A DNA stretch of 64,000 nt from an uncultured virus (IMG/VR IMGVR_UViG_3300043117_000361) (taxonomy: Duplodnaviria; Heunggongvirae; Uroviricota; Caudoviricetes), in IMG/VR virus record IMGVR_UViG_3300043117_000361. The stretch is one strand, 5' to 3'. Under the pieces are notes generated by a model, which had not been told where the DNA came from, searched no databases, and saw only the letters and a list, made by a program, of their open reading frames with translations. Made by a program: the position numbers and the translations under genes. Of the stretch, positions 23,273 through 43,458 are shown piece by piece. Each line of letters opens with the position of its first letter. Positions within the stretch are counted from its first letter, which is position 1.

Positions 23273-26200
23273 ATGCGTGGTGGAGTTAACTTACCAGTCG
23301 GTGTCAGGGATTTTCTGGATTTTGACACTACTAGAAAGGCCGTGTATGGTGGCACTCTACAGGCATTGAAGGAGAGGTTTCCTCTTGAGAATTCCAAATA
23401 CAGGCTGGAGCTTAATGATTTAGAGTATGGTAATACTCGTGATTTTTCTTTAAAGGAGCAGAAGAAGGCACTGTTTAACAGGTCTTCTCTTCACAGGCCT
23501 CTTAAAGGGACCTGGACCCTGGTGGATAAGGCTACCAATAAACCTATAGACCAGAAAAGAACCACAGTTATAAACGTCCCATATCTTACCCAGAGAGGCA
23601 CTTACATAGTAGGAGGCAATGAGTATACCATAGCCAATCAGATGCGACTTCGTTCTGGTATATTCACTCGTAAGAAAAATAACGGGGATATAGAGGCTCA
23701 TTTCAATATCCTGTCAGGCGGACCGTCCTTTAGAATGTTTATGGAGCCTTCAAGCGGTGTATTTAAACTAAAAGTGGGTCAGGCGAATTTAAAAGCTTAC
23801 CCGATACTTAAAGCGATGGGTATTAAAGACAGGGATATGGAGAAACACTGGGGTCCTGAGCTTTTAAGGGTAAATCTTGTTGAGAATGAGGATGTAAAAA
23901 CTCTAAATAAAGCGTGGAACAAATTTACTCAGTCCAGAGCTAAGAAGTCTGTTGGGGAGGACGTTACGGATAAGGACTGGTTGGAAGTTTTTTCTAAGCT
24001 TAAACTGGATCCTGAGGTTGTCGGGGTAACTCTCGGCAGTCCGTATACTAATGTGACTCCTGAAGTTCTTCTCAAGACGTCTGAAAAACTTGTCAATATA
24101 TCCAAAGGTAAAGCAGACACCGATGATAGGGACTCTCTGGCTTTTCAGGAGACATGGGGACCAGAGGATTTTTTTGCAGAGAGAATATCTAAAGACAGTG
24201 GCATGCTTGCCCGGAAGTTGCTGTGGAAGGCTACTCTGAATAAAAGTTTGAAAAAAATCTCTCCCAGCGCTCTGGATTCTCATGTTGACAGTGTGTTTTA
24301 TCTTTCCGGAGTTGCCTCTCCACTGGAAGAGATTAATCCTATGGATGCCATTGATCAAAACCTTAGGATAACCAGAATGGGAGTCGGAGGCCTGCCCAGT
24401 GCTGAAGCGGTTCCTGATGAGGCCAGAGCTTTGCAGCCGTCGCATTTTGGGTTTATAGACCCTATAAGGTCTCCTGAGTCCTCTAATCCCGGGGTAGATG
24501 GGCGTATCGCCTGGAACACGTATAAAGGCGTAGATCGTGAGCTTTACACCAGGTTGAAAGACTCTAAAAGCGGAAAGAGCATTTATTTGCCGCCCCAGGT
24601 AGTCTCCCGCATGCCTATTGCTTTTCCGGGCGAACACGAAAAGGCAGCTAAAACTGGCAAAAAAGTAAAATGCATAAGTAATGGTCAAATGAAGATGATG
24701 GATCCGGAAAAAGTACCATACGAGCTGTACAGTGCCTCTGGACAATTCAATCTTAATTCAAACCTTGTTCCCATGCTTTCAGCTATTGAAGGCGGTCGAC
24801 TGCTTATGGGGAGTAAATACATTAATCAGGCTCTTTCTGTTAAAAACAGAGAAGCACCACTGGTGAGACCTGTTGACGAAGATGGGGTTGATTTCTTTAA
24901 TTTTTCTGGAAAATACGCAGGAGTGGTTAGGTCGGATACTGAAGGGGTTGTCAGGTCGGTAACTGACGATGAAGTGGTCATACAGACTTCTGATGGTAAA
25001 ACTAAAACCATTGAGCTGTACAATAACATGCCGTACAACAGAAAATCCTATATAAGTAATGAGCCTTTAGTTCAGCCGGGGGATGTTCTTAAGCCGGGGC
25101 AGATTATTGCATCGAGTAACTATACGGACAAGTCTGGTGATCTTGCTCTTGGAGCTCATGTTCGTGCCGGGTATTTGCCTTATAAAGGCTATTCATACGA
25201 AGATGGTATAGTCATATCGGAGGGACTTGCTAAGAAATTTGCTTCTGAGCACATGTACACAGATAAACTGGACAGGGATAAGTTTACTACTCAAAGCAAG
25301 CTTAAGCATATGTCTGTTTTCCCCAGTGTCTATTCAAAAAAGCAGCTGGATAAAATAGATAAATCAGGAGTTGTTGCGCCTGGTTCCGTAGTTGAGAAAG
25401 GTGATCCTCTCATTCTGGCTGTGAAGCAGAAGACGTCCAAAGGATCTGGCATGCTGTATAGGGGTAAGAGTAGAGATTTCTCTGATTCTTCAGTGGAATG
25501 GGAACACGACACTCCCGGCATTGTCACTGATACCTGGAATGATGATGGCGGCACTAAAATCTCTGTTAAGACATATATGCCGGTTCAGGTTGGTGATAAG
25601 TTTAGTGGATTTTTTGGCAATAAAGGTACCGTGAGTAAAATAATACCGGATGATCAGATGCCTAAGGATGAGTCCGGTGAAACATTGGAGATGCTCCTTA
25701 ATCCTCTTGGTGTGATATCAAGGCACAATCCTGCCCAGCTGTATGAAGCTGTTTTGGCTAAAATAGCTCGAAAAAGAGGCAAGCCCTATTATGTACGCGG
25801 CTTTAATGACGACAGTCTCATAGACTTTGTTAAGAGTGAAATGAGTAAGCACGGTGTTAAAGATAAAGAAACGATATATGATCCGGCTACAGATAAGAAT
25901 ATTAAAGATGTTTTTGTTGGGTTTCCTTATATGCTCAAACTTCAACATACTTCAGAATCGAAAGAGTCTGGAAGGGCGTTTGGTTCTTACACATCAGAAG
26001 GGTCTCCATCTAAAGGGATAGACGAGGATAATCCAAAAAGAATTGGTATGCTTGAGATGGAGGCCCTGCTCGCTCACGGGGCTGTTAAAAACATTAAAGA
26101 TATACGCAACATAAAAGGACAGCAGAATCAGGATTATTGGAATGCTGTAATGCTGGGCATAAATCCTCCTCCCCCCAAGGTACCGGGAACGTATAAAAAG

Positions 26201-27685
26201 TTTATAGCAACTCTTCAGGCTTCCGGAATAAATGTAAAGGGAGAAGGTAATAATCTTCACTTGGCTGCCATGACAGATAGAGATGTGGAGGCTATAAGCA
26301 GCGGAGAAATAAAGAGTCCTGAAACAGTAAAGTGGAAGCAGAATTACGCTAAAGGCCTTATGGGTGAGCAGTCCATGGAGCCGGTAAAAGGCGGTCTATT
26401 TGACAGGGGCATTACCGGGGGCCACGGAGGAAACAGGTTTGGGCACATAACTTTGAGTGTGCCTATGCCCCAGCCGGTATTTGAAGACCCTATACGGTAC
26501 CTTCTGGGACTGACTCAAAAGCAGTATAGAAATGTTATTGCCGAGAAGGAGTCTATTCCTGATGTCGGCACTGGATCTGCTGCGATTAAAAAAGCTTTGT
26601 CACATATAGATATTGATAAAATGTATAGGGCGCAGGAGCATCTGTTTAATACAACCAGCAGTAAAACTGCCAAAAATCTTGCAGCTAAAAAAATGAAATA
26701 TCTAGATGGTTTAAGGAGAATGGGCGTACAGCCGGAAGACTTGGTTGTATCTAAAGTGGCTGTTCTTCCTCCTGTATACAGACCTATTACAGCTACTAAC
26801 AAGTTTGAGATGGTAGCTGGTTCGAATCTTCTGTATAAAGATTTAATGCATGCCAATCAGAACTACTCTGAGATGAAGGATAAGCTGACTCCGGATATGA
26901 GAGGAGAAGCTGCTCTTAATGTATATGATAACTTTAAAGCTGTGACAGGGCTCGGAACCCCGGTTAAAAAAGAAAGAAAAGCGCAAGGTATTAAAGGTCT
27001 TTTAAAAGAAGTGTTCGGAGCGTCTCCCAAGTCCGGTACGTTTCAACGTACACTTATATCGACTACTACGGATTTATCCGGTAGAGCTGTGATCTCCCCT
27101 GATCCTAATCTCGACATAGACGAGGTTGGGCTTCCGGAGGAAAAAGCGTGGGAGCTGTACAAGCCTTTTGTTATACGGCGTCTTATTCGTGATATAGGCA
27201 GTAAAGGATCTAAAGCCGATGCAATCAGAATGTATATGAATAAAACCCCTGAGGCCGAGAGGGCTCTTTTAAAAGAAATGGAACATAGGCCTTTACTGTA
27301 TTCCAGGGCTCCAGCTCTTCATAAGTACAGCATATTGGCCGCCAAGCCCGTATTGACTCGCGGTCACTCATTCAAGGTCCCCCCGCAGATATGCAAAGGC
27401 ATGAACGCCGATTTTGATGGGGATACCATGAATTTTCATGTTACAGTGTCTGATGAGGCTATTGAGGAAGCAAAGGAAAAAATGCTTCCATCTAAGAACA
27501 TACGTAAAATGTCTGATTTTCAAGTACAATACGCTCCAAGTCACGAATTTCTCATAGGTCTTCACAGGGCCACGCATAAAGAAGATTTAACTAAGAAACC
27601 TATAGTGTTTGATACAGTTCAGCAAGCCGTTAATGCGTATAACAGAGGCGAAGTTGAAGTAGACCAGCCTGTTATAATTAAATGA
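23273..27685 (+). CDS. DNA-directed RNA polymerase: beta subunit fused to the N-terminal half of beta'
   Basis: beta motifs PYLT.RGTYIVGGNE, HFGFIDP..SPES, RLLMGS, YEDGIVISE, GDK..G..GNKG, LNPLG..SR.N, YMLKL.H; beta' motifs GGLFD, VLPP.YRP, SGRAVI.PD, RAPALHK, NADFDGD. Confidence 0.93.
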   Translation: MRGGVNLPVGVRDFLDFDTTRKAVYGGTLQALKERFPLENSKYRLELNDLEYGNTRDFSLKEQKKALFNRSSLHRPLKGTWTLVDKATNKPIDQKRTTVINVPYLTQRGTYIVGGNEYTIANQMRLRSGIFTRKKNNGDIEAHFNILSGGPSFRMFMEPSSGVFKLKVGQANLKAYPILKAMGIKDRDMEKHWGPELLRVNLVENEDVKTLNKAWNKFTQSRAKKSVGEDVTDKDWLEVFSKLKLDPEVVGVTLGSPYTNVTPEVLLKTSEKLVNISKGKADTDDRDSLAFQETWGPEDFFAERISKDSGMLARKLLWKATLNKSLKKISPSALDSHVDSVFYLSGVASPLEEINPMDAIDQNLRITRMGVGGLPSAEAVPDEARALQPSHFGFIDPIRSPESSNPGVDGRIAWNTYKGVDRELYTRLKDSKSGKSIYLPPQVVSRMPIAFPGEHEKAAKTGKKVKCISNGQMKMMDPEKVPYELYSASGQFNLNSNLVPMLSAIEGGRLLMGSKYINQALSVKNREAPLVRPVDEDGVDFFNFSGKYAGVVRSDTEGVVRSVTDDEVVIQTSDGKTKTIELYNNMPYNRKSYISNEPLVQPGDVLKPGQIIASSNYTDKSGDLALGAHVRAGYLPYKGYSYEDGIVISEGLAKKFASEHMYTDKLDRDKFTTQSKLKHMSVFPSVYSKKQLDKIDKSGVVAPGSVVEKGDPLILAVKQKTSKGSGMLYRGKSRDFSDSSVEWEHDTPGIVTDTWNDDGGTKISVKTYMPVQVGDKFSGFFGNKGTVSKIIPDDQMPKDESGETLEMLLNPLGVISRHNPAQLYEAVLAKIARKRGKPYYVRGFNDDSLIDFVKSEMSKHGVKDKETIYDPATDKNIKDVFVGFPYMLKLQHTSESKESGRAFGSYTSEGSPSKGIDEDNPKRIGMLEMEALLAHGAVKNIKDIRNIKGQQNQDYWNAVMLGINPPPPKVPGTYKKFIATLQASGINVKGEGNNLHLAAMTDRDVEAISSGEIKSPETVKWKQNYAKGLMGEQSMEPVKGGLFDRGITGGHGGNRFGHITLSVPMPQPVFEDPIRYLLGLTQKQYRNVIAEKESIPDVGTGSAAIKKALSHIDIDKMYRAQEHLFNTTSSKTAKNLAAKKMKYLDGLRRMGVQPEDLVVSKVAVLPPVYRPITATNKFEMVAGSNLLYKDLMHANQNYSEMKDKLTPDMRGEAALNVYDNFKAVTGLGTPVKKERKAQGIKGLLKEVFGASPKSGTFQRTLISTTTDLSGRAVISPDPNLDIDEVGLPEEKAWELYKPFVIRRLIRDIGSKGSKADAIRMYMNKTPEAERALLKEMEHRPLLYSRAPALHKYSILAAKPVLTRGHSFKVPPQICKGMNADFDGDTMNFHVTVSDEAIEEAKEKMLPSKNIRKMSDFQVQYAPSHEFLIGLHRATHKEDLTKKPIVFDTVQQAVNAYNRGEVEVDQPVIIK

Positions 27686-29079
27686 CAAACAAAGATAAAG
27701 CTTATGGTTGCCACTTTTCAGATGCAGCAGTGTATGTAAAGCCTGCTGATCTTGTCGGGCACTATTTTAATAACAGTAAGTGGAGCCAGTATTGGTGGGG
27801 GGATGAGGATCATTGGAAACTGCGTGAGTGTGTGTCCGACGTTCCTGCATATAGGAAGTTTATAATTGATCTAGCTGATTTTCCCAGAGCAAAAGATGAT
27901 TGTAGAGTTTTAAGAAATGTAGAGGCATATAGTGCCTGTCCTGAGTTGTATGTCGGTTCATACTCCGGGGCTTCTGGTTTAAGCCTTCATAAAGTGTCTT
28001 ATTTCAGAAGGTATTCTGAGCAGAATGTTTTTCTGGTGAATCTGTCTACCGGTCACCAAATACTTACAACAGACAATAGTAAAGCTGTTTATGGGTTTAA
28101 CTCTGATGCGGCCAATTTCTGTACTGTGTCTCCAGACAAGGCAGTTGGTCTTTATGTTCCTATAGTTGGACATGTAGCAGAGCCGGTTAATACTCATATT
28201 TACTGTGATATGCTGTATGTAGGAACTAATCTTGATTTGGATTCTGAGCTTGGATATATCTTTGGGTTTCTTTCAGGGTATGTCGATAATAACATAGACT
28301 CAACTAAAATAAACACCAGTATCCTTAATTATAAATGTGAAACCTATCTCAAACGACGCGGCATATCTGTTTCTGAAGGAGAGTTTATACGTTGGATTCT
28401 GGATAAGATTAAAAGTTCTTTTGCTAAAAGAAGTATACCCAGCATTGCCGTAACGGCCGGTTCAGACTTTAAGTGGGGATTCGTTTCAGGAATGATGGAT
28501 TCTCATAAGCTGAATACAGATAATTTTATTATGTTTACCCGTCACTTTAGATTCGCCAGATCTTTTCGTACTTTTCTGGACCACCTTGGTATTAAAAACA
28601 ATATGTTTTACGTTGAGGCCGGGTCCAGACGGTCAGGATGGCGTATAGCAATAAATAAGTGCGACATATGTGTTAATAAAGGTTTTTTACAGTCTGACTA
28701 TGCTTTCGGGTCCTGTAGTTATGCAAACACAGCTGTTAAACACGACAGCGTTCCGCTGCCTTTTGAAGTTCTTGAAGCTGCAACGGGGTCCATGCATGAA
28801 AAGGGTTACAGTGATCTTTATCGTATTGTTCTTTTAAACAGCTATAGCGGTCTCATTAACAGGGACTCTGCTGTTAAAATTATAAAGCACATAAATAAGC
28901 ACAAAGGTATTGTCTTATCGTGGTGGAAAGATATAGTTATGAATGATAGGATTTTTTGGTCTGAAGTATATTCTGTTGAGAGTTCGGGTAAAACGGAGTG
29001 TGGATATGGTTTATCTGTGGAGGGGGCTGATACTTTCATATCTTCTGATGGATTTGCTGTTCCCAGTGTAAAAATTTAG
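27682..29079 (+). CDS. Free-standing intein-like protein (Hint halves plus LAGLIDADG-like core), splicing motifs degenerate
   Basis: N-terminal GCHFSDAAVYV, block-B-like LSTGHQILTTDNS, LGYIFGF and FVSGMMDS helices, C-terminal VYSVESSG...GYGLSVEGADTF without terminal HN. Confidence 0.65.
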   Translation: MTNKDKAYGCHFSDAAVYVKPADLVGHYFNNSKWSQYWWGDEDHWKLRECVSDVPAYRKFIIDLADFPRAKDDCRVLRNVEAYSACPELYVGSYSGASGLSLHKVSYFRRYSEQNVFLVNLSTGHQILTTDNSKAVYGFNSDAANFCTVSPDKAVGLYVPIVGHVAEPVNTHIYCDMLYVGTNLDLDSELGYIFGFLSGYVDNNIDSTKINTSILNYKCETYLKRRGISVSEGEFIRWILDKIKSSFAKRSIPSIAVTAGSDFKWGFVSGMMDSHKLNTDNFIMFTRHFRFARSFRTFLDHLGIKNNMFYVEAGSRRSGWRIAINKCDICVNKGFLQSDYAFGSCSYANTAVKHDSVPLPFEVLEAATGSMHEKGYSDLYRIVLLNSYSGLINRDSAVKIIKHINKHKGIVLSWWKDIVMNDRIFWSEVYSVESSGKTECGYGLSVEGADTFISSDGFAVPSVKI

Positions 29080-29087
29080 AGGGCATC

Positions 29088-29372
29088 ATGAGTATTATTG
29101 CGGAATGTGGCAAAGTGTATTCTCCGTTTCCGCCGGAGATATTTATTTTTAAAATATATCGTGTGATAAATCTTAAAAGCGTTTGCGATATAGAGTATGA
29201 TAAACATGCCAGTGTGTTCTTAACAGATTATAATTCCTCTCTTACTGGTCATTTGGAAGACAGGAGTGGGGCTGAGATTCTGTTGGTTCCTGTGTATAAT
29301 GACAGTGCGCAGTTTTCCGGGTTTAAACTGGTTCATAAAGATGATTTTACTACAAAGGGGATGCATTTATGA
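29088..29372 (+). CDS. Hypothetical protein
   Basis: Operon-like ORF. Confidence 0.55.
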   Translation: MSIIAECGKVYSPFPPEIFIFKIYRVINLKSVCDIEYDKHASVFLTDYNSSLTGHLEDRSGAEILLVPVYNDSAQFSGFKLVHKDDFTTKGMHL

Positions 29373-29701
29373 GCAGTAGATTTTCTCAAGTTATTGATAC
29401 AGTGGACCTGTCTAAACTGCCTGATCGCAGGTCCGTCAGGAATAAAAGTACAGACCAGCTCTTTTCCATGCTTAACCGGGCCGTATGGGATCAGTTTGAT
29501 CTTCCGGAAAATAAGAAGAATATACGTGCGTCCGATTTTGCATGGACTGAAGAAGTTGAAGAAGTATTTATGAATACTGCACCTATAAAAGCTATTTTAA
29601 AGCGTTTAACTGAAAAAATAGGTGAAGCTTCGGTCAGGTTGTTTTTACTGCATTATCTTCCTGTCACTTTAAGAGCAGGCTATGAAGACGCACACATTTA
29701 A
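29369..29701 (+). CDS. Hypothetical protein
   Basis: Coupled ORF. Confidence 0.6.
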   Translation: MSSRFSQVIDTVDLSKLPDRRSVRNKSTDQLFSMLNRAVWDQFDLPENKKNIRASDFAWTEEVEEVFMNTAPIKAILKRLTEKIGEASVRLFLLHYLPVTLRAGYEDAHI

Positions 29702-29957
29702 TGGGGTTAAGTATAATATATGTTTTGTGGAGCCCATAGAAGGGCTCACTGACGATAGAACAAGCGATGAGCCTGTAAACATGCTGGTTCTTAAAGGTAA
29801 TTCTATAAAAGCTCTTCATTCTCAGCTACATGAAGCGTTACACGGTATAGGGGTGCCTGATACGTTCATTCATAATAAAAACGGGGACTATACCACATAC
29901 GATGTAGCTCGTTTTTTGTGGAGAAATGGGTGGCGATGTGTCAAGCCTCCTGATTAA
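29682..29957 (+). CDS. Small HExxH metallopeptidase-like protein
   Basis: LHEALHG motif. Confidence 0.55.
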   Translation: MKTHTFNGVKYNICFVEPIEGLTDDRTSDEPVNMLVLKGNSIKALHSQLHEALHGIGVPDTFIHNKNGDYTTYDVARFLWRNGWRCVKPPD

Positions 29958-30055
29958 TTATGCCGCAGTTAAGTGGAATAATAATGTGCTGATTTAAGAG
30001 CGAAAGAATTATAATTGAGGTTAAATCAGGTGTGTTGGAGTGGAATAATAATATG

Positions 30056-30214
30056 CGCCCCTATATCCATGAGGACAATACACACAGGCGCTTTGACGGG
30101 CAGGGGAGTGAGGCATCCACTATGGAATTCTCTCCTGCCCGTTTGTTTTACAGTGCACCCTGTAGACACTAAGAAGCAGCTGAATAGATTCGCCTGCTAG
30201 GCTGCTTCTTTTTA
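30056..30214 (+). ncRNA. Candidate structured small RNA
   Basis: Follows two copies of the promoter motif; long stem ACGGGCAGGGGA...TCTCCTGCCCGT; terminator-like AAGAAGCAGC...GCTGCTTCTTTT. Confidence 0.35.
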
Positions 30215-30249
30215 GCTATTGGCTTGACCTTGGTTTTATGAATGATACA

Positions 30250-31386: not shown

Positions 31387-31437
31387 TTTTATATAATATG
31401 CAACTATGAATAATAAGTCAACTAATAGGTGTGGATT

Positions 31438-35241: not shown

Positions 35242-35247
35242 ATAGTC

Positions 35248-36044: not shown

Positions 36045-36795
36045 ATGCAGATTAATTGTTTGTTCACAACTGGAAGAACGGGGACTGCGTTTCTGTCGTC
36101 CTGTTTTGGTCACGGCGCGTGGAGTAAAACCAGAGTATTTAAAACAGAAGATGGGGTCACTTTTCACGAGAATATGAGGTCTAAACTGTTTTATATTTCT
36201 AAGCTGAAAAAACTTAATGATCTTGATTCTAATGAGGCTTTTGATTTACAGAGACGTACTGTTAACTCGATTGTATCTAGAGTTGGAGAGGCTGGTAGGG
36301 TTTTTGTAACTGATCTTAAAATGAAGTGGACATGCTGGGCTCTGCCTAAAATGTCTGATATGGATTATAAAGTGATTTATATAGAAAGGCCTAAAGAAGA
36401 TACAGTTAATTCTTTTCTTAAAAGGCACAGGCTCCGTCTTAAAAGAAGGGGATCAAAGCATTTCAGGTCTTTTTTTAAAAGGGCTGCGTCAGCGGTCATT
36501 TTTTGATCCTACTGATCGGTGTGTTTTGAATAGAATAAATATAGATGGTTTTTCATTGTACACTGATGGCAGACCGGATTTCGATAAACTTAGATTTTTT
36601 CTGGAGTTTTATTGGGAGGAAACCAGAAGCCAGTGGGAGAGATTCAAAAAGCTTTATCCTGATAATACATTAGAAGTAGCTTTTGCTGAGTTGACAGATG
36701 CCAGGTGTTTAGAGTATATTGGTCGTTTTATTGGTATGCGTCCTGATCTTTCCAGGATGGAAAAAAAGGTTAATCTTAAACCAAAAGGATGCTAG
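36045..36795 (+). pseudogene. Sulfotransferase-like gene split by a 1-nt frameshift
   Basis: PAPS-loop-like TTGRTGT, YIER..EDTVNS; removing one T from a homopolymer at 36470-36504 joins 36045-36506 to 36526-36795. Confidence 0.6.
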
Positions 36796-36831
36796 TGGCA
36801 TAATATAATGAACTCAGTTTGTTATTTGTTC

Positions 36832-36905
36832 GGGCCTGTAGCTCAGCTGGTTAGAGCAGGGAACTCATAATTCTCTGGTCGCAGGTTCAAATCCTGCCGG
36901 GCCCA
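36832..36905 (+). tRNA. tRNA with CAT anticodon, most likely tRNA-Ile2
   Basis: Cloverleaf GGGCCTG...CTCATAA...GGTTCAAATCC...CGGGCCCA; body resembles Ile2 rather than initiator Met. Confidence 0.88.
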
Positions 36906-36913
36906 CTATGAAT

Positions 36914-36990
36914 CGGAGAGTAGTACAGTTTGGCAGTACGCGTGGTTTGGGACCACGAAGTCGCAGGTTCAAATCCTGCCTCTCCGACCA
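36914..36990 (+). tRNA. tRNA-Pro(TGG)
   Basis: CGGAGAG...TTTGGGA...GGTTCAAATCC...CTCTCCGACCA with encoded CCA. Confidence 0.93.
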
Positions 36991-37005
36991 CACTTAAAAA
37001 AGGAG

Positions 37006-37023
37006 TTTGATATGCATATCAAA
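37006..37023. repeat. 18-bp palindrome, copy 2
   Basis: TTTGATATGCATATCAAA overlapping the ATG at 37012. Confidence 0.85.
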
Positions 37024-37266
37024 AACTTTATAGTATTGATTTTTATTTTATGTTTCGGGTGTACTACGCCAAGCGCATCGGTCAGTACCCTGTATATAAT
37101 GGATCACATAAAAAAACAGAATGAAAAAATAGACAAACTGTATGATGTTCTTTCCACTACTAACATATCCAGGAAGACTACGGTTTTTTATTTTAATAAT
37201 ATTACGGAAGATGGAGTTAAAAGTTTACTGCTTAATTCTGAAAGGATTTATGAGTTTGACCTATGA
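37012..37266 (+). CDS. Small lipoprotein-like protein
   Basis: AAGGAG RBS, hydrophobic stretch then FGC. Confidence 0.55.
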   Translation: MHIKNFIVLIFILCFGCTTPSASVSTLYIMDHIKKQNEKIDKLYDVLSTTNISRKTTVFYFNNITEDGVKSLLLNSERIYEFDL

Positions 37267-37640
37267 AACATTTTTTGAATTTAGTAATTGAAATGAACCC
37301 AACGTGTCCTTTTACAGACTGCGATGTTGCCTATCAGTTTGGTGAACTTCTTAAAGATATTGAAGCTGATATTGCTGTACGCAATGGGATGCCTATAAGA
37401 GCTAATGTTAAGCCCTATGACAGGAGAGGGGATCTCAGGTATTCCCTTTTGAAAAAGGATATAGTGTACGGCGATGGAGCGGCCATTAAGTTTAAAGTTA
37501 AAAAGAGTAAGCCTGTAAAAACTGAGAACACTAAAGATAAAGAGAGTACTAAGTCAGTAAAAGCAGCCGACAAGGTTTTAAGAAAAAAAGCATCTAGAAA
37601 AAAATACTCTAAAAAGAAGAAGTCAACTATAATGCTTTAA
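37263..37640 (+). CDS. Hypothetical protein with Lys-rich tail
   Basis: Coupled ORF. Confidence 0.6.
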   Translation: MKHFLNLVIEMNPTCPFTDCDVAYQFGELLKDIEADIAVRNGMPIRANVKPYDRRGDLRYSLLKKDIVYGDGAAIKFKVKKSKPVKTENTKDKESTKSVKAADKVLRKKASRKKYSKKKKSTIML

Positions 37641-37650
37641 CGAGATTGTA

Positions 37651-37974
37651 ATGAATATGTATTATTTGCTGTGTGTTCCCTGTCTTGTTATGATAGGCTT
37701 ATGTTGTTCTTTTATGGTTGTGAATTTTTTTAATATATGTGCAGGTCATGTGGCTCATCTGTTTTCTAGAGGCACTAATGTTGAGCAGCATGGGATGTGG
37801 GCTGATCCGTTTGGCAATATCTATTATATTATGAAAGAGCGCGATACTGTTTATGGAGAAGCAGTCTGTAGAGTGTACAAAAATGGAGCTCTATTAACGG
37901 CCTGCTTGTCACGCAACCAATGGATATCGTTTTTCAAATCGAGACACTTGTTTAGACATGGAAGATCTATTTAA
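37651..37974 (+). CDS. Hypothetical membrane protein
   Basis: N-terminal hydrophobic segment. Confidence 0.5.
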   Translation: MNMYYLLCVPCLVMIGLCCSFMVVNFFNICAGHVAHLFSRGTNVEQHGMWADPFGNIYYIMKERDTVYGEAVCRVYKNGALLTACLSRNQWISFFKSRHLFRHGRSI

Positions 37975-38173
37975 ATTAAAACATGATTTAGGTGCATCTA
38001 ATATAGGTGTCAGCCTGGTAGGCGAGGTTATATGTGTCTTCGCTGATTTTTTAGATACAGATGAGCGCCTTTCTTTAGAGATAACGTGGAATCAATGGAT
38101 GCAAAGCCGTTTTTCTCTTACTGAGGTGATTAAATGCAGATTAAAGAAGGAGTTAAAAAAATCCAGGAAATAA
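37958..38173 (+). CDS. Hypothetical protein
   Basis: Coupled ORF. Confidence 0.5.
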   Translation: MEDLFKLKHDLGASNIGVSLVGEVICVFADFLDTDERLSLEITWNQWMQSRFSLTEVIKCRLKKELKKSRK

Positions 38174-38229
38174 TATCCTTTATTTAATCCCGGTGGTGAC
38201 GTATAATAAAGCATAAATCTAGGTTTTTT

Positions 38230-39591
38230 ATGCTTTCTAAGACTTCTTATAATTATAGACGGTTTGGAAGATTTTCTGATTTACCTACAGGTAATCCTGT
38301 TGATTTCGTTGTGCAGCAACATGATGCCCAGCGAGCCGGTAAACACAGAGATGTAAGGTTCGGTACGCCAAGTACAGGGCTGTATTCCTTCGCTACAAAG
38401 AAGGAGATACCTGCACCGGGAGACAAAAGAGTCTGGTATCAGCAACCAGTCCACGGGTATTCGTATAAGGACTTTGAAGGCAAAATACCGTCCGGATACG
38501 GTAAAGGTACAGTAAAAAAAGAGCGTGATGGCAAGATTATCATTACTGATGCCAGTAATAACTATATAAGGTTTCTTACAGCTGATAAAAAGAACCCCGA
38601 GTATTTTATTATGCTGAGAATGAAAGATACGGCCGGTAGTGGGTCAAAAAGGGACAAACAGACTCAAGGGGGATCGTGGCTTGTAGTTAACACGACTCCT
38701 AATAAGCCCGTGGACTATAAAAAACCTAAATATAAACAGGTTTCTGCCGCTGAAATAGACAAACTGTTTAATAATGACTCGGTTTTAAGTGAAAAAATAG
38801 ATGGAGCACAGGCTCTTCTATCCGTTATGAACGATAGTGTAAGAATTATGAGTTATAGAACTGATAAGTCAGGAAAACCTATAGTTCATACGGATCGTCT
38901 CAGGTTTAAACAGCCGGATACTGTTCCTGCGGAATACAGGAACAGACAGTTTGTAGGTGAATTATGGGCCTCAAAGAACAATAAAGCTGTACCTCATAGT
39001 ACTTTATCTGCCTTGCTGAACTCTACGCCGGAAAACGCACGAAAAAGAATGGCTGTCGAGAGCATAAAGCCTCACATGGCTCTTTTCGGGGAAATAACCA
39101 ATACCGATAAATGGTATGATATGCCGGTTAATAAGCGCAGAGCCATTATACAGGACTTTATTAAAGCCATAGGCATGGGGAATCAGCTACATGAGCCTGA
39201 ATATGCATATACTCGGGAAGAAAAACGTAATTTGTGGAATAAGATACTGGATAAAAGTAATTTACGAACTAGAGAAGGTGTGATATCTTATCCTTTTTCA
39301 GGAGGTAAACCCATTAAGGTAAAGATCCGTCCGGAGATGGACGTATATATAAAAGATCTTCTTACTGGAAGTGGTAAATTTAAGGATATGAACAGCAGAT
39401 TTGCGTACAGTACTCAGCCGGGAGGACCCGTAAAGGGCATAGTTGGAACTGGATTTTCTGATGAAGACAGAGAAATGATGACCAACGATCCTAGTGCATA
39501 TATTGGAAGAAAGGCCAGAGTTAATTATCAGGATGTGTTTAACAGCGGGGCGCTGAGAGCTCCGTCTTTTATATCGCTGCATGAAGAATAA
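38230..39591 (+). CDS. LigD-type 3'-phosphoesterase domain fused to an ATP-dependent DNA ligase
   Basis: FVVQQH.A.R...H.DVR, GYGKG.V; ligase SEKIDG, GEL, EGV, K.K and OB-fold VGTGFSD...LRAPSF. Confidence 0.8.
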   Translation: MLSKTSYNYRRFGRFSDLPTGNPVDFVVQQHDAQRAGKHRDVRFGTPSTGLYSFATKKEIPAPGDKRVWYQQPVHGYSYKDFEGKIPSGYGKGTVKKERDGKIIITDASNNYIRFLTADKKNPEYFIMLRMKDTAGSGSKRDKQTQGGSWLVVNTTPNKPVDYKKPKYKQVSAAEIDKLFNNDSVLSEKIDGAQALLSVMNDSVRIMSYRTDKSGKPIVHTDRLRFKQPDTVPAEYRNRQFVGELWASKNNKAVPHSTLSALLNSTPENARKRMAVESIKPHMALFGEITNTDKWYDMPVNKRRAIIQDFIKAIGMGNQLHEPEYAYTREEKRNLWNKILDKSNLRTREGVISYPFSGGKPIKVKIRPEMDVYIKDLLTGSGKFKDMNSRFAYSTQPGGPVKGIVGTGFSDEDREMMTNDPSAYIGRKARVNYQDVFNSGALRAPSFISLHEE

Positions 39592-39615
39592 TAGGAATAA
39601 GGTAAAAGGTTAATT

Positions 39616-39981
39616 ATGAATAAGAAAGCGTACATACAGAATAATATAGGCACGGCCCACCCTCAGCCCGTTATAAATTTTTCATATGGGTACCCTCGCG
39701 TAACTGGTTATACCGACTCCAACAGAACTGTTCCTTATGGTAGGTATATTGATGAGCCCCATGAGCCGGCTGGCATCAGCAGGTTGCTGGCGGCTAAGGC
39801 TCTTATGGATGCCAGGGAAAAAGAGGTAGAGGAAAAACCTGATAATAAAGTAGCTCCGCTTTTAGGGGCGGTTGCCGGTGCCGGTCTTGGTGCGGCTGTT
39901 CCAGTCAGATATGGTTGGGCTCCGGCAAGTCTTGGTGCTTTTTTAGGGGCGGCCGGTGCTAATAAACTTTTCAATAAATAA
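39616..39981 (+). CDS. Gly-zipper protein
   Basis: C-terminal GAVAGAGLG...GAFLGAAGA. Confidence 0.6.
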   Translation: MNKKAYIQNNIGTAHPQPVINFSYGYPRVTGYTDSNRTVPYGRYIDEPHEPAGISRLLAAKALMDAREKEVEEKPDNKVAPLLGAVAGAGLGAAVPVRYGWAPASLGAFLGAAGANKLFNK

Positions 39982-40628
39982 TGCCGACTAATATATTCAG
40001 AGGCTCTAGTAAGTATACGCCGCGTACTCTTGGGCAGACCGCTGCCATTAATAACGCGATACGCGGCCTGTCTAATGCCCCTGTTTCCGATATTAAACTT
40101 ATTGCTGGCGGCATGGGTGGAGCTGAGAGTAGCTGGAATACTAATGCTTTAAATGAAGCAGGTAATCGGTATGGTATGTTTCAAATGAGCAATCCGCTTT
40201 TAAATCAGTATGGTGTCACTAATAACAGGGATGCCGCTACGACGGCCAGAGCAGCACTTCAGTACGTGGACAGGCTTAGAGGGCTTACTGCTGAGTCTCC
40301 TTTTAACATAGATAAACAGAATACGTCTGAAGTAGCCTTGCAAAAGTATAATTACGGTCCTTTTCAAAAGGCCTTTAAGACAAGTCCTGAATACAGAAAA
40401 CTGCCTGATGAGACGTTAAACTATGTTAATAGGGTCAGACAGTATGCCGAAGGAGCTGAGCCGGTATTTAAACAGCATGCTTTAAATATAAATGGAGGAA
40501 AAGAACCTGGCAAGTTTATGAAATGGTATAATCACTATAAAGGTACAGAGACAGGAAGCAATATGCTTTCCAGGTTTCAAAAAGAGACGAAGAAGATTCA
40601 GAACAAGTTAAAAAAACAACTAAATTAG
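39981..40628 (+). CDS. Lytic transglycosylase (SLT-like)
   Basis: AESSWN, GMFQM, YNYGP, ETLNYV.RV. Confidence 0.82.
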   Translation: MPTNIFRGSSKYTPRTLGQTAAINNAIRGLSNAPVSDIKLIAGGMGGAESSWNTNALNEAGNRYGMFQMSNPLLNQYGVTNNRDAATTARAALQYVDRLRGLTAESPFNIDKQNTSEVALQKYNYGPFQKAFKTSPEYRKLPDETLNYVNRVRQYAEGAEPVFKQHALNINGGKEPGKFMKWYNHYKGTETGSNMLSRFQKETKKIQNKLKKQLN

Positions 40629-40642
40629 AGGAGCAGATTACA

Positions 40643-40918
40643 GTGTTTTTAAACCTAGACGAATTAGAGCAAACGTTGCTGGAAATTGAAAAGACCTGTG
40701 GGCGTAAAGACAAAGAACCAGCACAGTGCAACGATGTTAAAGATTTAACCTATTATTATGTTGAGATCAATAATCTATTAGAGCGCAAGAGCAATGTTCT
40801 AGATGTTCAGGTCAGGTATCTTAATGAAGCTGATAAGTGTGATAATATACTTTCAGAGATTGATCGTAAAATTGTTAAGCTTAAAGTGGATCTTGCTGAC
40901 GTCATTCTAGGAAAATAA
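40643..40918 (+). CDS. Hypothetical coiled-coil protein
   Basis: GAGGAG RBS, GTG start. Confidence 0.6.
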   Translation: MFLNLDELEQTLLEIEKTCGRKDKEPAQCNDVKDLTYYYVEINNLLERKSNVLDVQVRYLNEADKCDNILSEIDRKIVKLKVDLADVILGK

Positions 40919-40919
40919 A

Positions 40920-41618
40920 ATGCGTAAAAAGGCTAAAATCACTCTGAAAGATGTCGGAACTCTTGCTGCTCTTATGGCTGCTGGATACGGCATTAATACT
41001 GCGTCTAAAGCGTATGTAGACTCAGCGATGAGGGATTTGCCTAAAGCCAGTTTAAAAGATATTGACAAATTGATGGAAGGGTCGGGGATGGAGGCTGTCT
41101 CTATTCCCGGCCTGAATAATGCCATGTATGTTGCTCCTAATCGCGCCAAACAGATTGGGCTGCCTGAAAACTATCATAATAGCGGCATAGTGGCCTATGA
41201 TCCTTCCTTTCGTAATTTAGGCGTTATTGCTCATGAGCTTGGGCATCAGTCTATAGAGAAAACTCCAGGCTTATCCAGGTTTAATCAGAAAAAACTTAAG
41301 CCTTTTTTTTCGCTATTAACGGGTCTTAGTCCTATTGCCGGCTATGCGGCCGGCAGGATTACCGGCAAGCCTTGGACCGGACCTCTTGCTTCCGTTGCCG
41401 TACAGGCTCTGGTTAATACTCCGGGATACATAAATGAAAGTCAAGCTACTCAAATAGCTATTGATAAACTTCGTAAAATGAATCTGCCGCCTAAAGATAG
41501 AGTAAAGTACAGAAAAACTCTTAATAGAGCCAAACACACATATATGTGGCCTGAGCTTTTGTACAGTGCTATCAGCGGTGGGATTCTGGGAACCCTGGGG
41601 GCTGAACAGCATGATTAA
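40920..41618 (+). CDS. Membrane-associated zinc metallopeptidase-like protein
   Basis: IAHELGH, hydrophobic helices, NE..A...A and TY motifs. Confidence 0.7.
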   Translation: MRKKAKITLKDVGTLAALMAAGYGINTASKAYVDSAMRDLPKASLKDIDKLMEGSGMEAVSIPGLNNAMYVAPNRAKQIGLPENYHNSGIVAYDPSFRNLGVIAHELGHQSIEKTPGLSRFNQKKLKPFFSLLTGLSPIAGYAAGRITGKPWTGPLASVAVQALVNTPGYINESQATQIAIDKLRKMNLPPKDRVKYRKTLNRAKHTYMWPELLYSAISGGILGTLGAEQHD

Positions 41619-43458
41619 AACTACTGTTGGAAAAGTTATATTCAATCAGGCCTTACCCTCTGAGTACAGAGACTATACTTCTCTTACTTCAGATGATTTA
41701 AAAGATGTTCTCGACCGTATGGAAAGAGAAATGAGTCAGGACGCGTACCGTAAGGCCACCAAGGACCTTCATCGTCTAGGTGCAAAGGTAGCGTACGAGA
41801 CAGGTGTCAGTCTGTCTATAGACGATCTGGCCAAGCCCCCTAAAACCAGGATGCTGATAGACAGGCTCAAAAGAGATATTAAAAAAGTGTCAGAGTCTCC
41901 CAGGCTGACTGACGATCAAAAAAATAAAGCCATTGTCGGTCTCATTCTTAAGAACCAGGATGCCATTCAGAAAACCATGTTTGACGAGTCAGCAGCCAGT
42001 GGTAACTCTTTTGCCGAGCAGGTCATGTCTAAAGCAAGGGGAAAGCTTTCTGATATGCGGAGCATTATTGTTGGAAATCTTTTAGTGGCTGACAATAAAG
42101 ACAGGGTAGTGCCTATACCTATGTTGAGGAGTTATAGCGAGGGTCTGGATCCTGCTGAGTACTGGGCCGGGGCGTATGGAGCCAGAAAAGGACTTCTATC
42201 TACAAAAATAGCAACAGCTGATACAGGATTTTATGGAAAACAGTTAAAGCAGGCTGCACATAGACTGGTTGTCACTGAGAACGACTGTAAGACCGACAGG
42301 GGTATGGTGGTCGATAGAGAGGACAAAGACAATTTAGGAGCTCTTCTTGCTAAACAATATGGCGACTATCCTGCCGGTACTGTTATAACTCCTGAAGTGT
42401 TGGACAGTATAGAGGATGATGAGATAGTCGTAAGATCCCCTGTGACATGCAATGCAGCCGCAGGAGTCTGTTCCAGGTGTGCCGGAATACGGGAAAAAGG
42501 AGGATTTCCTGATATCGGTGAGAACGTAGGTATGTCAGCTGCACAGGCAGTTGCTGAGCCCACGACTCAGATGGCTCTTAATGTTAAGCACCAGGGTGGA
42601 CGCATAGATAAGGAGAAAAAAGGGGACGAGCCAAGTGGATTTGAGCTTGTTAATCAGCTTATACAGGTTCCTAAATCTTTCAGGGGAGCTGCTGCTGTCT
42701 CATCAAAAGACGGTACAGTGACTAAAATTGAAGATTCTCCTCAGGGGGGCAAGTATATTTATGTAAGCGGTCAAAAGCACCATATTAATCAGGGTTTTGA
42801 TCCTGTGGTAAAAGAAGGTGACAGGGTTTACTCCGGAGATGTTCTGTCAACCGGCATTCCTAATCCGTCGGATCTTGTTAAGTACAAGGGGCTTGGTGAA
42901 GGCAGAAGGGAATTTATACGTTTATTTAAAAAAGCGTATACAGATCAGGGCATTAACATAAACAGGCGCAATGTAGAGCTGGTAGCCAGGGGTCTGGTTA
43001 ATCATGTTCATGTAAATGATATTGATGGAGTTCCGGGTTTACCTGGCGACATATTGGAATACTCGTCGGTAGAGAGAAAATATAAGCCCAGGTATGGTAC
43101 CAGACACTTGCCTGTAAGTACGGCCTCTAATAAGTATCTTGAAAAGCCTGTATTGCACTACTCTATAGGTACTCGCATTACTAAACCTGTATTGGATAAA
43201 CTTAAAAAACATAATGTTAAATATGTGGAAGCCCATGACGATCCACCGCCGTTCAATTCTTTTATGCTTAGAGCTTTGGAAAATCTTGCTAAAACTCCAG
43301 ACTGGCAGGCCAGACTTGGTGGTTTTTATTTAAAAGATAATCTTCTTGAAGCCGCCCATAGAGGCAGAGAGTCTAAGATTCACAGCGAATCATATATTCC
43401 TTCTCTGGTTCAGGGTAAGGATTTTGGAAAAAAACTATACACAAAAGGTGAGTACTAG
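41611..43458 (+). CDS. RNA polymerase beta' C-terminal half
   Basis: TTVGKVIFN, SKARG, SYSEGL, GARKGL..T...TADTG, EN.DC, RSPVTC, CSRC, AAQAVAEPTTQM...KH.GG. Confidence 0.92.
   Translation: MIKTTVGKVIFNQALPSEYRDYTSLTSDDLKDVLDRMEREMSQDAYRKATKDLHRLGAKVAYETGVSLSIDDLAKPPKTRMLIDRLKRDIKKVSESPRLTDDQKNKAIVGLILKNQDAIQKTMFDESAASGNSFAEQVMSKARGKLSDMRSIIVGNLLVADNKDRVVPIPMLRSYSEGLDPAEYWAGAYGARKGLLSTKIATADTGFYGKQLKQAAHRLVVTENDCKTDRGMVVDREDKDNLGALLAKQYGDYPAGTVITPEVLDSIEDDEIVVRSPVTCNAAAGVCSRCAGIREKGGFPDIGENVGMSAAQAVAEPTTQMALNVKHQGGRIDKEKKGDEPSGFELVNQLIQVPKSFRGAAAVSSKDGTVTKIEDSPQGGKYIYVSGQKHHINQGFDPVVKEGDRVYSGDVLSTGIPNPSDLVKYKGLGEGRREFIRLFKKAYTDQGININRRNVELVARGLVNHVHVNDIDGVPGLPGDILEYSSVERKYKPRYGTRHLPVSTASNKYLEKPVLHYSIGTRITKPVLDKLKKHNVKYVEAHDDPPPFNSFMLRALENLAKTPDWQARLGGFYLKDNLLEAAHRGRESKIHSESYIPSLVQGKDFGKKLYTKGEY

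Follow-up and report, generated by a model that had tools for sequence, protein, structure and literature searches.

A phage RNA polymerase that joins beta to the front of beta-prime in one gene and encodes the remainder of beta-prime in another

Gene layout at the locus

The window, a stretch of 64,000 nt from an uncultured tailed phage (IMG/VR IMGVR_UViG_3300043117_000361), encodes the catalytic core of a bacterial-type multisubunit RNA polymerase (RNAP) in two genes, listed here with their neighbours.

18295..20058, + strand: portal homologue of 587 aa; the fused RNAP gene follows 3.2 kb downstream
23273..27685, + strand: beta plus beta-prime N gene (chain 1), 1470 aa, a single uninterrupted ORF, bridged by contigs of other runs
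23273..26242, + strand: beta part, residues 1 to ~990
25592..25627, + strand: GDK...GNKG of the beta double-psi barrel, residues 774-785 (GDK 774-776, GNKG 782-785)
26225..26275, + strand: beta to beta-prime join
26255..27682, + strand: beta-prime N part, residues ~995-1470, equivalent to RpoC ~28-554 (profile against Salmonella RpoC)
27404..27424, + strand: catalytic NADFDGD, residues 1378-1384, by motif position
27682..33804, strand not assigned: spacer block 1, with a 465-aa ORF, small ORFs, the next three genes and an acidic 133-aa ORF
30286-31644, - strand: TnpB
31626-32282: LAGLIDADG endonuclease
32399-33283: MYG1-like protein
33842..34510, + strand: Pro/Ala/Gly/Met-rich protein, 222 aa, cassette gene 1
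34507..34725, + strand: 72-aa protein, cassette gene 2
34756..41618, + strand: spacer block 2, with two Gly-rich paralogues, small ORFs and the next three genes
36832-36906: tRNA-Met
36914-36990: tRNA-Pro
38230-39591: ATP-dependent DNA ligase
41611..43458, + strand: beta-prime C-terminal gene (chain 2), 615 aa, equivalent to RpoC from ~569-571, starting at TTVG
42178..42270, + strand: bridge helix region, GARKG onward, aligned with Salmonella RpoC from residue 775
42286..42480, + strand: second zinc site, kept (Cys226, Cys280, Cys287, Cys290), by aligned positions
42520..42600, + strand: first trigger-loop helix, ending KHQGG, by motif position

Chain 1 was matched by Pfam Rpb2 domains 2, 3 and 6 (Rpb2_2/3/6) over residues 173-907 and by Rpb1_1/2 over residues 1114-1403, and it was 31% identical to Arash gp206 and D69_0261 across 98-99% of its length. 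The beta part extended to the extreme C-terminus of bacterial beta: the family profile aligned with Salmonella RpoB as far as residue 1340 of 1342, and PDB beta chains matched residues 37-1014. The GDK...GNKG motif fell inside the Rpb2_6 match (E 4e-53). When the family profile was searched (hmmsearch) on Salmonella RpoB and RpoC, ~12 residues lay between the end of beta and about residue 28 of beta-prime; no variable linker was present, and the join was conserved in the consensus of 28 sequences. In the beta-prime part, the profile covered Salmonella RpoC 28-63 and 160-551, and PDB beta-prime and cyanobacterial gamma chains matched residues 1078-1469. RpoC 63-160 was mostly without a counterpart, and the N-terminal zinc element of beta-prime (four cysteines) was absent from chain 1. 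The only cysteines of this chain were at positions 467 and 1374 (2 of 1470 residues, or 0.14%, where 93 ORFs of the phage together had 1.48%). The residues D1380, D1382 and D1384 were unchanged across 28 relatives. This makes chain 1 a complete beta plus beta-prime ~28-554, with both double-psi barrels and all three catalytic aspartates in it, and confirms the initial annotation, which had placed both barrel motifs in a single 1470-aa chain. The gene ended with TGA (27683-27685) and contained no in-frame TGA in its 1470 codons. Against 27 relatives, conservation was 40-53% over the full length, with numerous invariant columns.

The reading frame of chain 2 was open from a GTG at 41566, and the protein from the ATG at 41611 began MIKTTVG. 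This start was backed by the N-termini of homologues and by a GGGGG Shine-Dalgarno-like run ahead of the ATG. All of the best 150 beta-prime-C relatives began between -53 and +5 residues from the chain 2 start, and an N-terminal extension was seen in none of them. Chain 2 carried Pfam Rpb1 domain 5 (Rpb1_5, E 7e-27) and was aligned by the profile with Salmonella RpoC 571-947 and 1188-1286; the profile skipped RpoC 947 to 1188 over ~50 positions, and there was no large SI3-type insertion after the trigger-loop helix. The Rpb1_5 match, the RpoC alignment and the four cysteines bore out the earlier placement of the bridge helix, trigger loop and zinc site in this gene. In the alignment, some relatives lacked the cysteines of the second zinc site.

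The two genes were 13,925 nt apart, the widest separation seen. The 465-aa ORF overlapped the stop of chain 1 (ATGA) in a different frame, and its homologue was present only in L017, the closest relative. The 222-aa protein was recognized with a profile E value of 5.5e-29, partly by construction as the profile was made from 14 relatives and the ORF of the window itself. The 72-aa protein matched four relatives by blastp (E 6e-8 to 4e-5) and its profile at E 4.3e-21, again partly by construction. This two-gene cassette sat between the RNAP halves in the subclade of the window; cassette gene 2 was directly upstream of beta-prime-C in relatives and 6.9 kb before it here. On the other side of chain 1, the portal homologue matched the Arash gp204 portal region (tblastn, E 1.4e-54) and D69_0259 (E 6e-64), and the order from portal to fused RNAP gene was common to Arash, D69 and the window. 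The RNAP genes do lie beside head genes, in line with the virion-like neighbours first proposed.

Separately, a covarying stem-loop of ~57 nt occurred 10 times in a GC-rich island at 51.9-59.0 kb, always on the + strand and mostly directly before a small ORF.

Reality of the layout and search for alpha and sigma

The layout, in which one ORF holds the whole of beta and the first ~40% of beta-prime and the rest is a separate gene, was confirmed as real. Positions 22800-29200 were covered at no less than 99% identity by contigs from all four other runs, which were possibly from one sampling campaign; neither joints nor loose ends were seen. Contigs bridged the beta to beta-prime join in three of these runs and the stop codon in all four. 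The nearest record, G001 (111.7 kb, ~57% complete, ending just past the terminase gene), was 99.995% identical and thus the same contig, so it was not counted as independent.

No Pfam match to sigma-70, RpoA or RpoZ was obtained at E<=0.001 among 50 ORFs of the window and 48 further ORFs of G001 (at least 100 aa, overlapped frames removed). In the 111.7-kb record, the fused chain had one match and PF04998 had one, and only one RNAP set was found there. No homologue of the sigma-like gp10 of Arash was found in this record (best E value 0.12). The statement in the initial annotation that no alpha or sigma gene is seen held for the window; a sigma gene may lie beyond the record, as Gp10 adjoins the terminase in Arash and the record ends beside the terminase. 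No RNA run containing the stretch was found.

Distribution among relatives and probable order of events

PF00562 and PF00623 occurred together in 119 of the best 120 homologues of chain 1, and PF04998 in none of the 120. The cultured phages Arash (Salmonella) and D69, D148 and D181 (Vibrio) had the same two genes, and the boundaries of Arash gp206/gp216 and D69_0261/0264 were identical to those of the window's chains. The layout is not unique but standard in a large phage clade that includes these described phages. The initial annotation had named such a case as one that would lower novelty, and it holds in half: the four phages share the layout, while no paper describing it was found in the literature searched.

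Both parts were present at 63 IMG/VR loci. No stop lay between them at 38 loci (a continuous chain of ~1900-2100 aa), and the parts were 888-6479 nt apart at 24; the remaining locus, L089, had a TGA plus 30 nt between the parts, and in-frame TGAs occurred elsewhere in that phage too. Pfam, run on three of the full fusions, placed Rpb2_6, Rpb1_2 and Rpb1_5 in a single chain of 1930-2128 aa. The single-chain form was not found in any cultured phage of a 50,697-record collection. Inteins (Hint plus LAGLIDADG inserts) occurred in beta-prime-C and in the fused chain of relatives, at about residues 200 and 323 in beta-prime-C.

In a tree of 59 rows (quick search, LG+G4), rooted on Salmonella and Staphylococcus, two outgroup rows that differ in composition, the 19 split rows all grouped in a single clade (SH-aLRT 99) that lay within the full fusions, and one change of state was enough. 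The window fell inside this clade, in a 13-row subclade with support of 100, and Arash and the Vibrio phages D69, D148 and D181 were in the same split clade. Nesting of the split forms among full fusions indicates that the family was fused first and then split once. The tree left off 22 of 76 loci (17 had inteins or matched in several tblastn segments, 3 were partial and 2 contained in-frame TGA); a second independent split may have occurred, since the split locus L073 (36% identity) was left off. From this tree, the ancestral RNAP of the family would have been one continuous beta-beta-prime chain, cut a single time immediately past the beta-prime barrel. The two-gene cassette lies in the gap in the subclade of the window, and in this phage the gap would then have widened to 13.9 kb as more DNA was inserted, including mobile elements. 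Phylogeny had been proposed as a check by the initial annotation, which had named Helicobacter and Wolbachia for whole fusions; the nearest such fusions are not confined to them, being present at 38 of the 63 loci of the phage family, with the split a later single event.

Comparison with known RNA polymerases

In Helicobacter and Wolbachia, beta is joined head-to-tail with beta-prime in cellular enzymes that have alpha, omega and sigma and an unsplit beta-prime. By contrast, beta-prime of the window is cut after the barrel and has a deletion of the N-terminal zinc region. The split between gamma (RpoC1) and beta-prime (RpoC2) in cyanobacteria and plastids lies in the same region, just past the beta-prime barrel, in line with the initial annotation. 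However, it is not at the same residue: the cyanobacterial split is ~12-18 residues downstream (RpoC2 residues 5-12 align to beta-prime-C profile positions 22-23), gamma runs ~67 residues beyond the end of the phage chain, and beta is separate there and fused here.

The phiKZ/AR9-type RNAPs are phage-encoded enzymes without alpha and omega, and one of the two is packaged in the virion (PMC7598289, available text). According to the same text, their beta is in 2-3 pieces and never joined to beta-prime, while beta of the window is whole and fused; they have two enzyme sets per genome, compared with one in the 111.7-kb record. The initial annotation held that phiKZ-like enzymes are split differently. 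This was correct for beta, but their beta-prime split, after the barrel, is described as coinciding with the cyanobacterial one (PMC7598289, available text) and so lies in the same region as that of the window. In YerA41, of this type, the gene order was beta-prime-N, beta-prime-C, beta, and beta-prime-C began near profile position 88. Sequence similarity of phiKZ/AR9-type enzymes to the window RNAP was far weaker than that of Arash-type enzymes. The mReC (multimeric-RNAP-encoding Caudovirales) are uncultured tailed phages with deep-branching bacterial-like beta and beta-prime; in the rows available from their annotation table, these matches were on separate, mostly adjacent genes, unlike the window (PMC7481178). 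The main text available uses 'fused' or 'fusion' for crAssphage only and 'split' not at all, and none of six dataset numbers of IMG/VR loci was among the mReC contigs in the supplement available (PMC7481178).

The closest likeness was to Arash (gp206, 1525 aa; gp216, 606 aa; OQ632216; PMC10585845, seen as available text) and Vibrio D69, D148 and D181, which agreed with the window in chains, boundaries and split clade. The proteins of these phages were ~27-31% identical to those of the window, the two genes were separated by 4.8 kb in Arash and by 0.6 kb in D69 compared with 13.9 kb in the window, and all four phages were without the Pro-rich and small-protein cassette. The available text of the Arash paper names the proteins beta and beta-prime and contains neither 'fusion' nor 'fused' (PMC10585845). 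Single-chain RNAPs of uncultured relatives (e.g., L061, L068 and L047; 1930-2128 aa) belong to the same family, with 30-36% identity and the same join; their reading frame continues past the beta-prime barrel, which makes the whole core one polypeptide, whereas that of the window stops there.

Assignment of the window RNAP to the phiKZ/AR9 type was rejected (beta whole and fused, one enzyme set in the 111.7-kb record), as were a cyanobacterial-type split (boundary offset of ~12-18 residues, gamma ~67 residues longer, beta fused), a whole beta-beta-prime fusion (TGA at 27683-27685 in all four other runs, beta-prime-C 13.9 kb off) and a split-intein gene (no Hint/intein Pfam match, termini aligning to RpoC 551 and 571).

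Proposed assembly and packaging of a two-chain enzyme

The analysis showed which domains the chains hold, exactly where their boundaries lie, how well these are conserved and how the family branches. The explanation that we consider likely as a whole is a two-chain core, derived from an ancestral fusion that was cut once, whose chains reassemble and which is delivered by the virion, the last by analogy. Chains 1 and 2 would rejoin through the ordinary intramolecular interface of beta-prime, the C-terminus of chain 1 lying against the N-terminus of chain 2, and the covalent link between beta and beta-prime would replace the alpha dimer as assembly platform. As the structural check put forward earlier, residues 1005-1470 of chain 1 were modelled in complex with residues 1-530 of chain 2. 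The model scored 0.76 compared with 0.00 for the best control; 116 of 157 solved complexes attained this mark, as did 2 of 215 mismatched pairs. Contacts agreed between runs by at least 97%, partner pLDDT was at least 84, and residues 1461-1470 of chain 1 contacted residues 1-11 of chain 2 in the model. Because bacterial RNAP has been solved, this result demonstrates similarity and may reflect structures already known to the predictor.

Analogy with Arash suggests an enzyme that would be loaded into the virion, arrive with the DNA and then transcribe the early genes, its probable partner being a sigma-like phage factor whose gene would lie beyond the available contig. In the Arash virion preparation, no protein was detected more often than Gp206 (3516 spectra, 128 unique peptides, coverage of 100%), whose spectral count exceeded that of the major capsid protein; Gp216 and the sigma-like Gp10 gave 1210 and 467 spectra (PMC10585845, available text). 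The same preparation lists 116 proteins, ribonucleotide reductases included, and its authors state that abundant infection-stage enzymes may just have co-purified (PMC10585845, available text). Packaging of the window's enzyme is plausible because the two chains rank with the most abundant proteins of Arash virion preparations; the analogy draws on one relative at ~31% identity, the only phage in which both chains are known from virions. The initial annotation had fairly offered packaging as an inference, and its interpretation was partly supported overall.

Alternative explanations

The fusion or the split could be an artefact of assembly or gene calling, arising from a chimeric contig, an erroneous frameshift or read-through that was missed. 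The nearest record provides no independent check, and the fused gene ends with TGA, which the relatives L085 and L089 seem to use as sense. However, the contigs of the four other runs agreed across the join and the stop, the following ORF is in a different frame from 1470 codons free of TGA, the architecture is identical in 119 of the best 120 homologues and in four cultured phages, and peptides covered Arash Gp206 completely (PMC10585845, available text), so that an artefact, as envisaged in the initial annotation, is extremely unlikely. Decay of a broken RNAP heading for loss after mobile-element insertions would fit the TnpB and LAGLIDADG genes in the spacer and the largest gap seen. Yet both ORFs are whole with every catalytic motif present, the boundaries match 24 other split loci and cultured, viable phages, and conservation against 27 relatives extends over the full length with many invariant columns; we regard decay as scarcely credible.

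It is also very unlikely that a split intein acting after translation, or joining at the RNA level, turns the products back into one beta-beta-prime chain. Inteins are abundant in the family and its ancestral protein was one chain in the tree, but neither window protein has a Pfam Hint/intein domain, all 150 relatives begin with Met and 1-4 residues followed by TTVG, and the spacer holds ~20 ORFs, one on the reverse strand. There is no space for intein halves, because the end of chain 1 and the start of chain 2 align to RpoC 551 and 571. A working two-chain RNAP that is not packaged but produced in the infected cell to serve middle or late genes, while host RNAP or another factor begins infection, is a more serious alternative, although still improbable. 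Clearly non-structural enzymes are in the Arash virion list, carry-over was offered by its authors (PMC10585845, available text), and the window's enzyme retains a zinc site with four cysteines. Against this stand the spectral count of Arash Gp206, which tops all Arash proteins including the major capsid protein in the available text, the position of the gene within the head module beside the portal in three phages, the single RNAP set in 111.7 kb and the cysteine depletion of the fused chain.

Implications

A further proposal, which we put forward as speculative and rather doubtful, is that the covalent tie between beta and beta-prime dispenses with the alpha-dimer platform and so makes the core packable in the head and deliverable through the tail, that the cut was fixed because two shorter chains load or eject more easily, and that the stem-loops are the first promoters or transcript-start signals. 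If this were true, a core of one or two chains would be small and self-contained enough for packing in the head and delivery through the tail, and the stem-loops at 51.9-59.0 kb would be promoters or transcript-start signals read first by the delivered enzyme.

Domain content of the two RNA polymerase chains

The initial annotation had read an RNA polymerase (RNAP) in which beta is fused to the catalytic half of beta-prime, with the remainder of beta-prime 14 kb away. The two genes were:

23273-27685, + strand, chain 1 (beta joined to beta-prime-N), 1470 aa
41611-43458, + strand, chain 2 (beta-prime-C), 615 aa

Chain 1 was encoded in a single frame. In Pfam, its residues 173-907 matched Rpb2 domains 2, 3 and 6, and its residues 1114-1403 matched Rpb1 domains 1 and 2. 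The barrel motifs GDK...GNKG and NADFDGD were located at residues 774-785 and 1378-1384, confirming that both are held in one 1470-aa chain. The rest of beta-prime was indeed a separate gene beginning at the TTVG motif, and its product matched Rpb1 domain 5. ATG at 41611 was the best candidate for its start because the predicted N-terminus is MIKTTVG, the codon is preceded by a GGGGG run and homologues share the start site.

Two family profiles, A2 (28 fused chains) and A1 (20 beta-prime-C chains), were aligned to Salmonella RpoB and RpoC, taken from a bacterial contig found within the phage collection. Beta was complete in chain 1, with the profile extending to RpoB residue 1340 of 1342; after approximately 12 residues the chain resumed at RpoC ~28, and RpoC 63-160 was shrunk to about 30 positions. 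Only two cysteines (467 and 1374) were present in chain 1, indicating loss of the N-terminal zinc element of beta-prime. Chain 1 ended at RpoC ~551-554 and chain 2 started at RpoC ~569-571. The second gene, to which the initial annotation had assigned a zinc site, retained the second zinc site (cysteines 226, 280, 287 and 290 of chain 2), and the trigger loop carried no large insertion. Boundaries from PDB searches agreed with the Salmonella-based mapping; a 70-residue N-terminal query had no significant match in PDB. Jointly, the two chains have all beta/beta-prime core elements except the first zinc element.

Authenticity of the join and the parent record

An assembly artefact would also produce an apparent fusion, but this was contradicted by Logan contigs from four other runs, which covered 22800-29200 at no less than 99% and were free of other letters, joints and loose ends. 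The beta/beta-prime join was bridged by a contig in three of the four runs and the TGA stop in all four. These runs were labelled "oil field metagenome" and were not flagged as a possible source; they may share one sampling campaign. No RNA run carrying the RNAP stretch was found among the runs listed for 22800-29200.

The window is phage DNA, with genes for dUTPase, ribonucleotide reductase, exonuclease, a RecU-like resolvase, DNA ligase, two tRNAs, homing endonucleases and IS-type transposases. As a reverse complement, it corresponds to 22729-86726 of G001 (99.995% identity), a 111.7-kb IMG/VR record that is about 57% complete. Being the same contig, G001 cannot serve as independent support for the window. 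Beyond the window, G001 carried a terminase, a PolA-type DNA polymerase, helicases and an RNA ligase/kinase. The 970-aa family A DNA polymerase (window-relative -10341 to -7432) had a uracil-DNA-glycosylase-superfamily domain at its N-terminus. An ORF at 48382-49266 repeated an 87-nt (29-aa) unit about 6.7 times in tandem, and copies about 80% identical occurred at several further G001 sites, some outside the window.

Single-chain and split forms in the family

When 5.8 billion proteins were searched for homologues of chain 1, both barrel domains were present in 119 of the best 120, and Rpb1_5 was present in none of them. For chain 2, the 150 best-matching cluster representatives all started between -53 and +5 residues from the window start, and none had room for the beta-prime-N part. 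In a collection of 50,697 phage records, both genes were found at a coverage of at least 88% in four cultured phages: Salmonella phage Arash and Vibrio phages D69, D148 and D181. Their chain boundaries were the same as those of the window, and a portal gene likewise lay upstream of the fused gene.

When IMG/VR was scanned with an alignment, 76 loci were recovered; a single-protein query returned none. Both parts were located in 63 loci. In 38 of these, the frame continued without a stop into beta-prime-C, giving one chain of ~1900-2100 aa; three such loci were checked by Pfam, and each had Rpb2_6, Rpb1_2 and Rpb1_5 together. The parts were 888-6479 nt apart in 24 loci, and were separated by TGA plus 30 nt in the remaining one (L089). 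The fused RNAP frames of L085 and L089 contained four and two in-frame stops, respectively, every one TGA, and in both loci TGA probably specifies an amino acid.

A rooted tree of the chain 1-homologous region (IQ-TREE, LG+G4, quick search, 1419 columns) was built from 59 rows: 54 loci, the window, Arash, D69 and two bacterial outgroup rows. All 19 split rows formed one clade (SH-aLRT 99), with full-length fusions beside and below it, and a single change of state suffices to explain this pattern. The enzyme would thus have been fused first and split afterwards in one event. The 22 loci left off the tree (17 with inteins or several tblastn segments, three partial and two with in-frame TGA) included L073, a split locus, so a second split may have occurred elsewhere.

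Inserts of 134-777 aa recurred in beta-prime-C relatives at about residue 200 (bridge helix) and residue 323 (trigger loop) (P0123-P0272). In two insert-bearing relatives a Pfam match fell inside the insert, and these inserts are inteins because they contain Hint and LAGLIDADG domains. C-terminal extensions of 300-1137 aa occurred in about half of the 150 relatives, with DUF5661 or DUF4269 in two of the eight checked. Some fused chains of 1700-2200 aa (P0024-P0049) had precomputed matches to SET (PF00856), GNAT acetyltransferase (PF00583), LigT (PF02834) and PF22547, suggesting that enzymatic modules were added to the polymerase.

The gap between the two genes

The RNAP halves of the window were 13,925 nt apart, the largest separation measured. 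Beta-prime-C was absent from the 10-kb flank of locus L040, whose separation may be similar. A conserved + strand gene pair was found in the gap in the 13-row subclade of the window, and this two-gene cassette marks the subclade. The first gene encodes a Pro/Ala/Gly/Met-rich protein of ~230 aa; the second encodes ~75 aa and lies directly upstream of beta-prime-C. The cassette and the mobile elements of the window are as follows:

3242-3766, - strand, HNH endonuclease
16390-18001, IS607-type pair (serine recombinase and TnpB), directly before the portal gene
30286-31644, - strand, second TnpB, in the RNAP spacer
31626-32282, LAGLIDADG endonuclease, in the RNAP spacer
33842-34510, + strand, cassette gene 1
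34507-34725, + strand, cassette gene 2

In the window, approximately 6.2 kb was added ahead of the cassette (a 465-aa ORF, the minus-strand TnpB, the LAGLIDADG endonuclease and a MYG1-like protein) and approximately 6.9 kb behind it (Gly-rich paralogues, two tRNAs, a DNA ligase and small ORFs). The 13.9-kb gap is filled in part by mobile elements. The adjacent Gly-rich paralogues (34756-35241 and 35248-35919) had similar N-termini and a common C-terminal "...RIDW" motif. A 585-aa ORF upstream of chain 1 (21507-23264) and the 465-aa ORF downstream were considered as extra subunits and rejected, with homologues in 0 and 1 of the 76 loci, respectively. The 585-aa ORF and the 453-aa DNA ligase (38230-39591) contained no cysteines, compared with 1.48% phage-wide.

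A GC-rich island with stem-loop repeats

A block of ~10 kb at 49500-60300 had a GC content of 0.52-0.57, compared with 0.41-0.44 elsewhere. No ORF on either strand was longer than ~280 aa and no frame was dominant, even when TGA was read as Trp. A stem-loop element of ~57 nt with a conserved AGCGAAG centre and TTGTT tail was present in 10 copies, with no copy elsewhere in the 111.7-kb record:

51887, 52352, 52672, 53950, 55422, 56153, 57566, 58131, 58359 and 58972 (span 51887-59012), all + strand, stem-loop element

Compensatory changes were observed in 7 of the 17 predicted pairs. An ORF of 53-96 aa lay no more than 90 nt downstream of eight of the ten copies, six of these eight with a clear GGAG-type ribosome site; the stem-loops may serve as promoter or 5' leader signals. 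T-arm-like hairpins of the GGTTCGA(T/G)TCC type were seen 3' of two copies (58400-58510 and 59040-59075). Searches of the island gave only four weak, implausible Rfam matches at E≤1, and ARAGORN made no call at default settings or with introns; six weak, untrusted tRNA-like calls appeared at a lowered threshold. Folding of eight 150-nt island stretches gave z values of -1.95 to +2.74, with no general structure signal.

Predicted assembly of the two chains, alpha and sigma

When residues 1005-1470 of chain 1 and 1-530 of chain 2 were modelled as a complex, the score was 0.76, compared with 0.00 for the best control. Among solved complexes, 116 of 157 reached this mark, as did 2 of 215 mismatched pairs. 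Runs agreed in at least 97% of contacts, partner pLDDT was at least 84, and the ten C-terminal residues of chain 1 were placed against the first eleven of chain 2. Because bacterial RNAP structures are already solved, the model shows a predicted likeness to bacterial RNAP and not independent proof of binding.

All known cellular RNAPs require an alpha-like platform to unite the two large subunits. No alpha, omega or sigma gene was found among the 98 ORFs of the ~57% complete G001, extending the initial reading for alpha and sigma. The covalent link of beta to beta-prime would replace the alpha platform. Arash encodes a sigma-like protein, Gp10 (Sigma70_r3, E 9e-9), near its terminase gene; no Gp10 homologue was found in G001, which ends just past its own terminase gene.

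Possible packaging in the virion

Packaging of the enzyme, proposed from its gene neighbourhood, was consistent with a portal gene 3.2 kb upstream of the fused gene and with a cysteine content of 0.14% in chain 1, compared with 1.48% over 93 ORFs. The RNAP is cysteine-depleted, not cysteine-free, and keeps its second zinc site. In the published Arash virion data (OQ632216; PMC10585845), detection was highest for the chain 1 homologue Gp206 (3516 spectra, 128 unique peptides, 100% coverage), and 1210 spectra were assigned to the chain 2 homologue Gp216, 1148 to helicase Gp217 and 467 to Gp10. The authors noted possible co-purification of abundant enzymes, and ribonucleotide reductases are on their 116-protein list (PMC10585845). 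By analogy with Arash, we infer that the RNAP may be packaged in the window's phage.

Comparison with described polymerases

The initial annotation placed the cyanobacterial split just after TTVG. The region proved to be shared but the exact residue differs: judged from PDB match ranges, RpoC2 starts ~12-18 residues downstream of the phage split and cyanobacterial gamma reaches ~67 residues beyond the end of chain 1. According to the available text of PMC7598289, phiKZ-type phages split beta-prime in the same region as cyanobacteria, and so in the same region as the window phage but at a different residue. The match of AR9 beta-prime-C to the profile began at AR9 residue 179.

The accessible text of the Arash paper names both proteins beta and beta-prime and does not use "fusion" or "fused" (PMC10585845). 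In that of the paper on multimeric-RNAP-encoding Caudovirales (mReC), these words are applied to crAssphage only, and beta and beta-prime were on separate genes in the annotation rows examined (PMC7481178). None of six dataset numbers of related loci occurred among mReC contigs, and membership of the window in that group was rejected for lack of evidence. The layout was absent from the available text of two jumbo-phage reviews and a 2026 review. No description of a phage beta/beta-prime-N fusion with separate beta-prime-C was found in searchable full text (outside subscription journals; supplements limited to file 4 of PMC7481178). Overall, the initial observation was confirmed and its interpretation was supported in part. 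The layout is widespread, in a clade with four cultured members, but is not a described standard in that literature. The window adds a further member to this clade, and its RNAP architecture is a variant without description in the searchable literature. Public records label the fused gene "beta" or "hypothetical", which conceals its architecture.

What the window adds is the widest separation measured (13.9 kb), a rooted tree with a single split event and a cassette that marks its subclade. With both barrels in one chain, no visible alpha gene and an enzyme apparently carried in the virion, this polymerase contrasts with cellular RNAPs. The family holds one-chain and two-chain states, a natural experiment on where a multisubunit polymerase tolerates cuts yet still assembles, and the cultured members Arash and D69 make it testable now.
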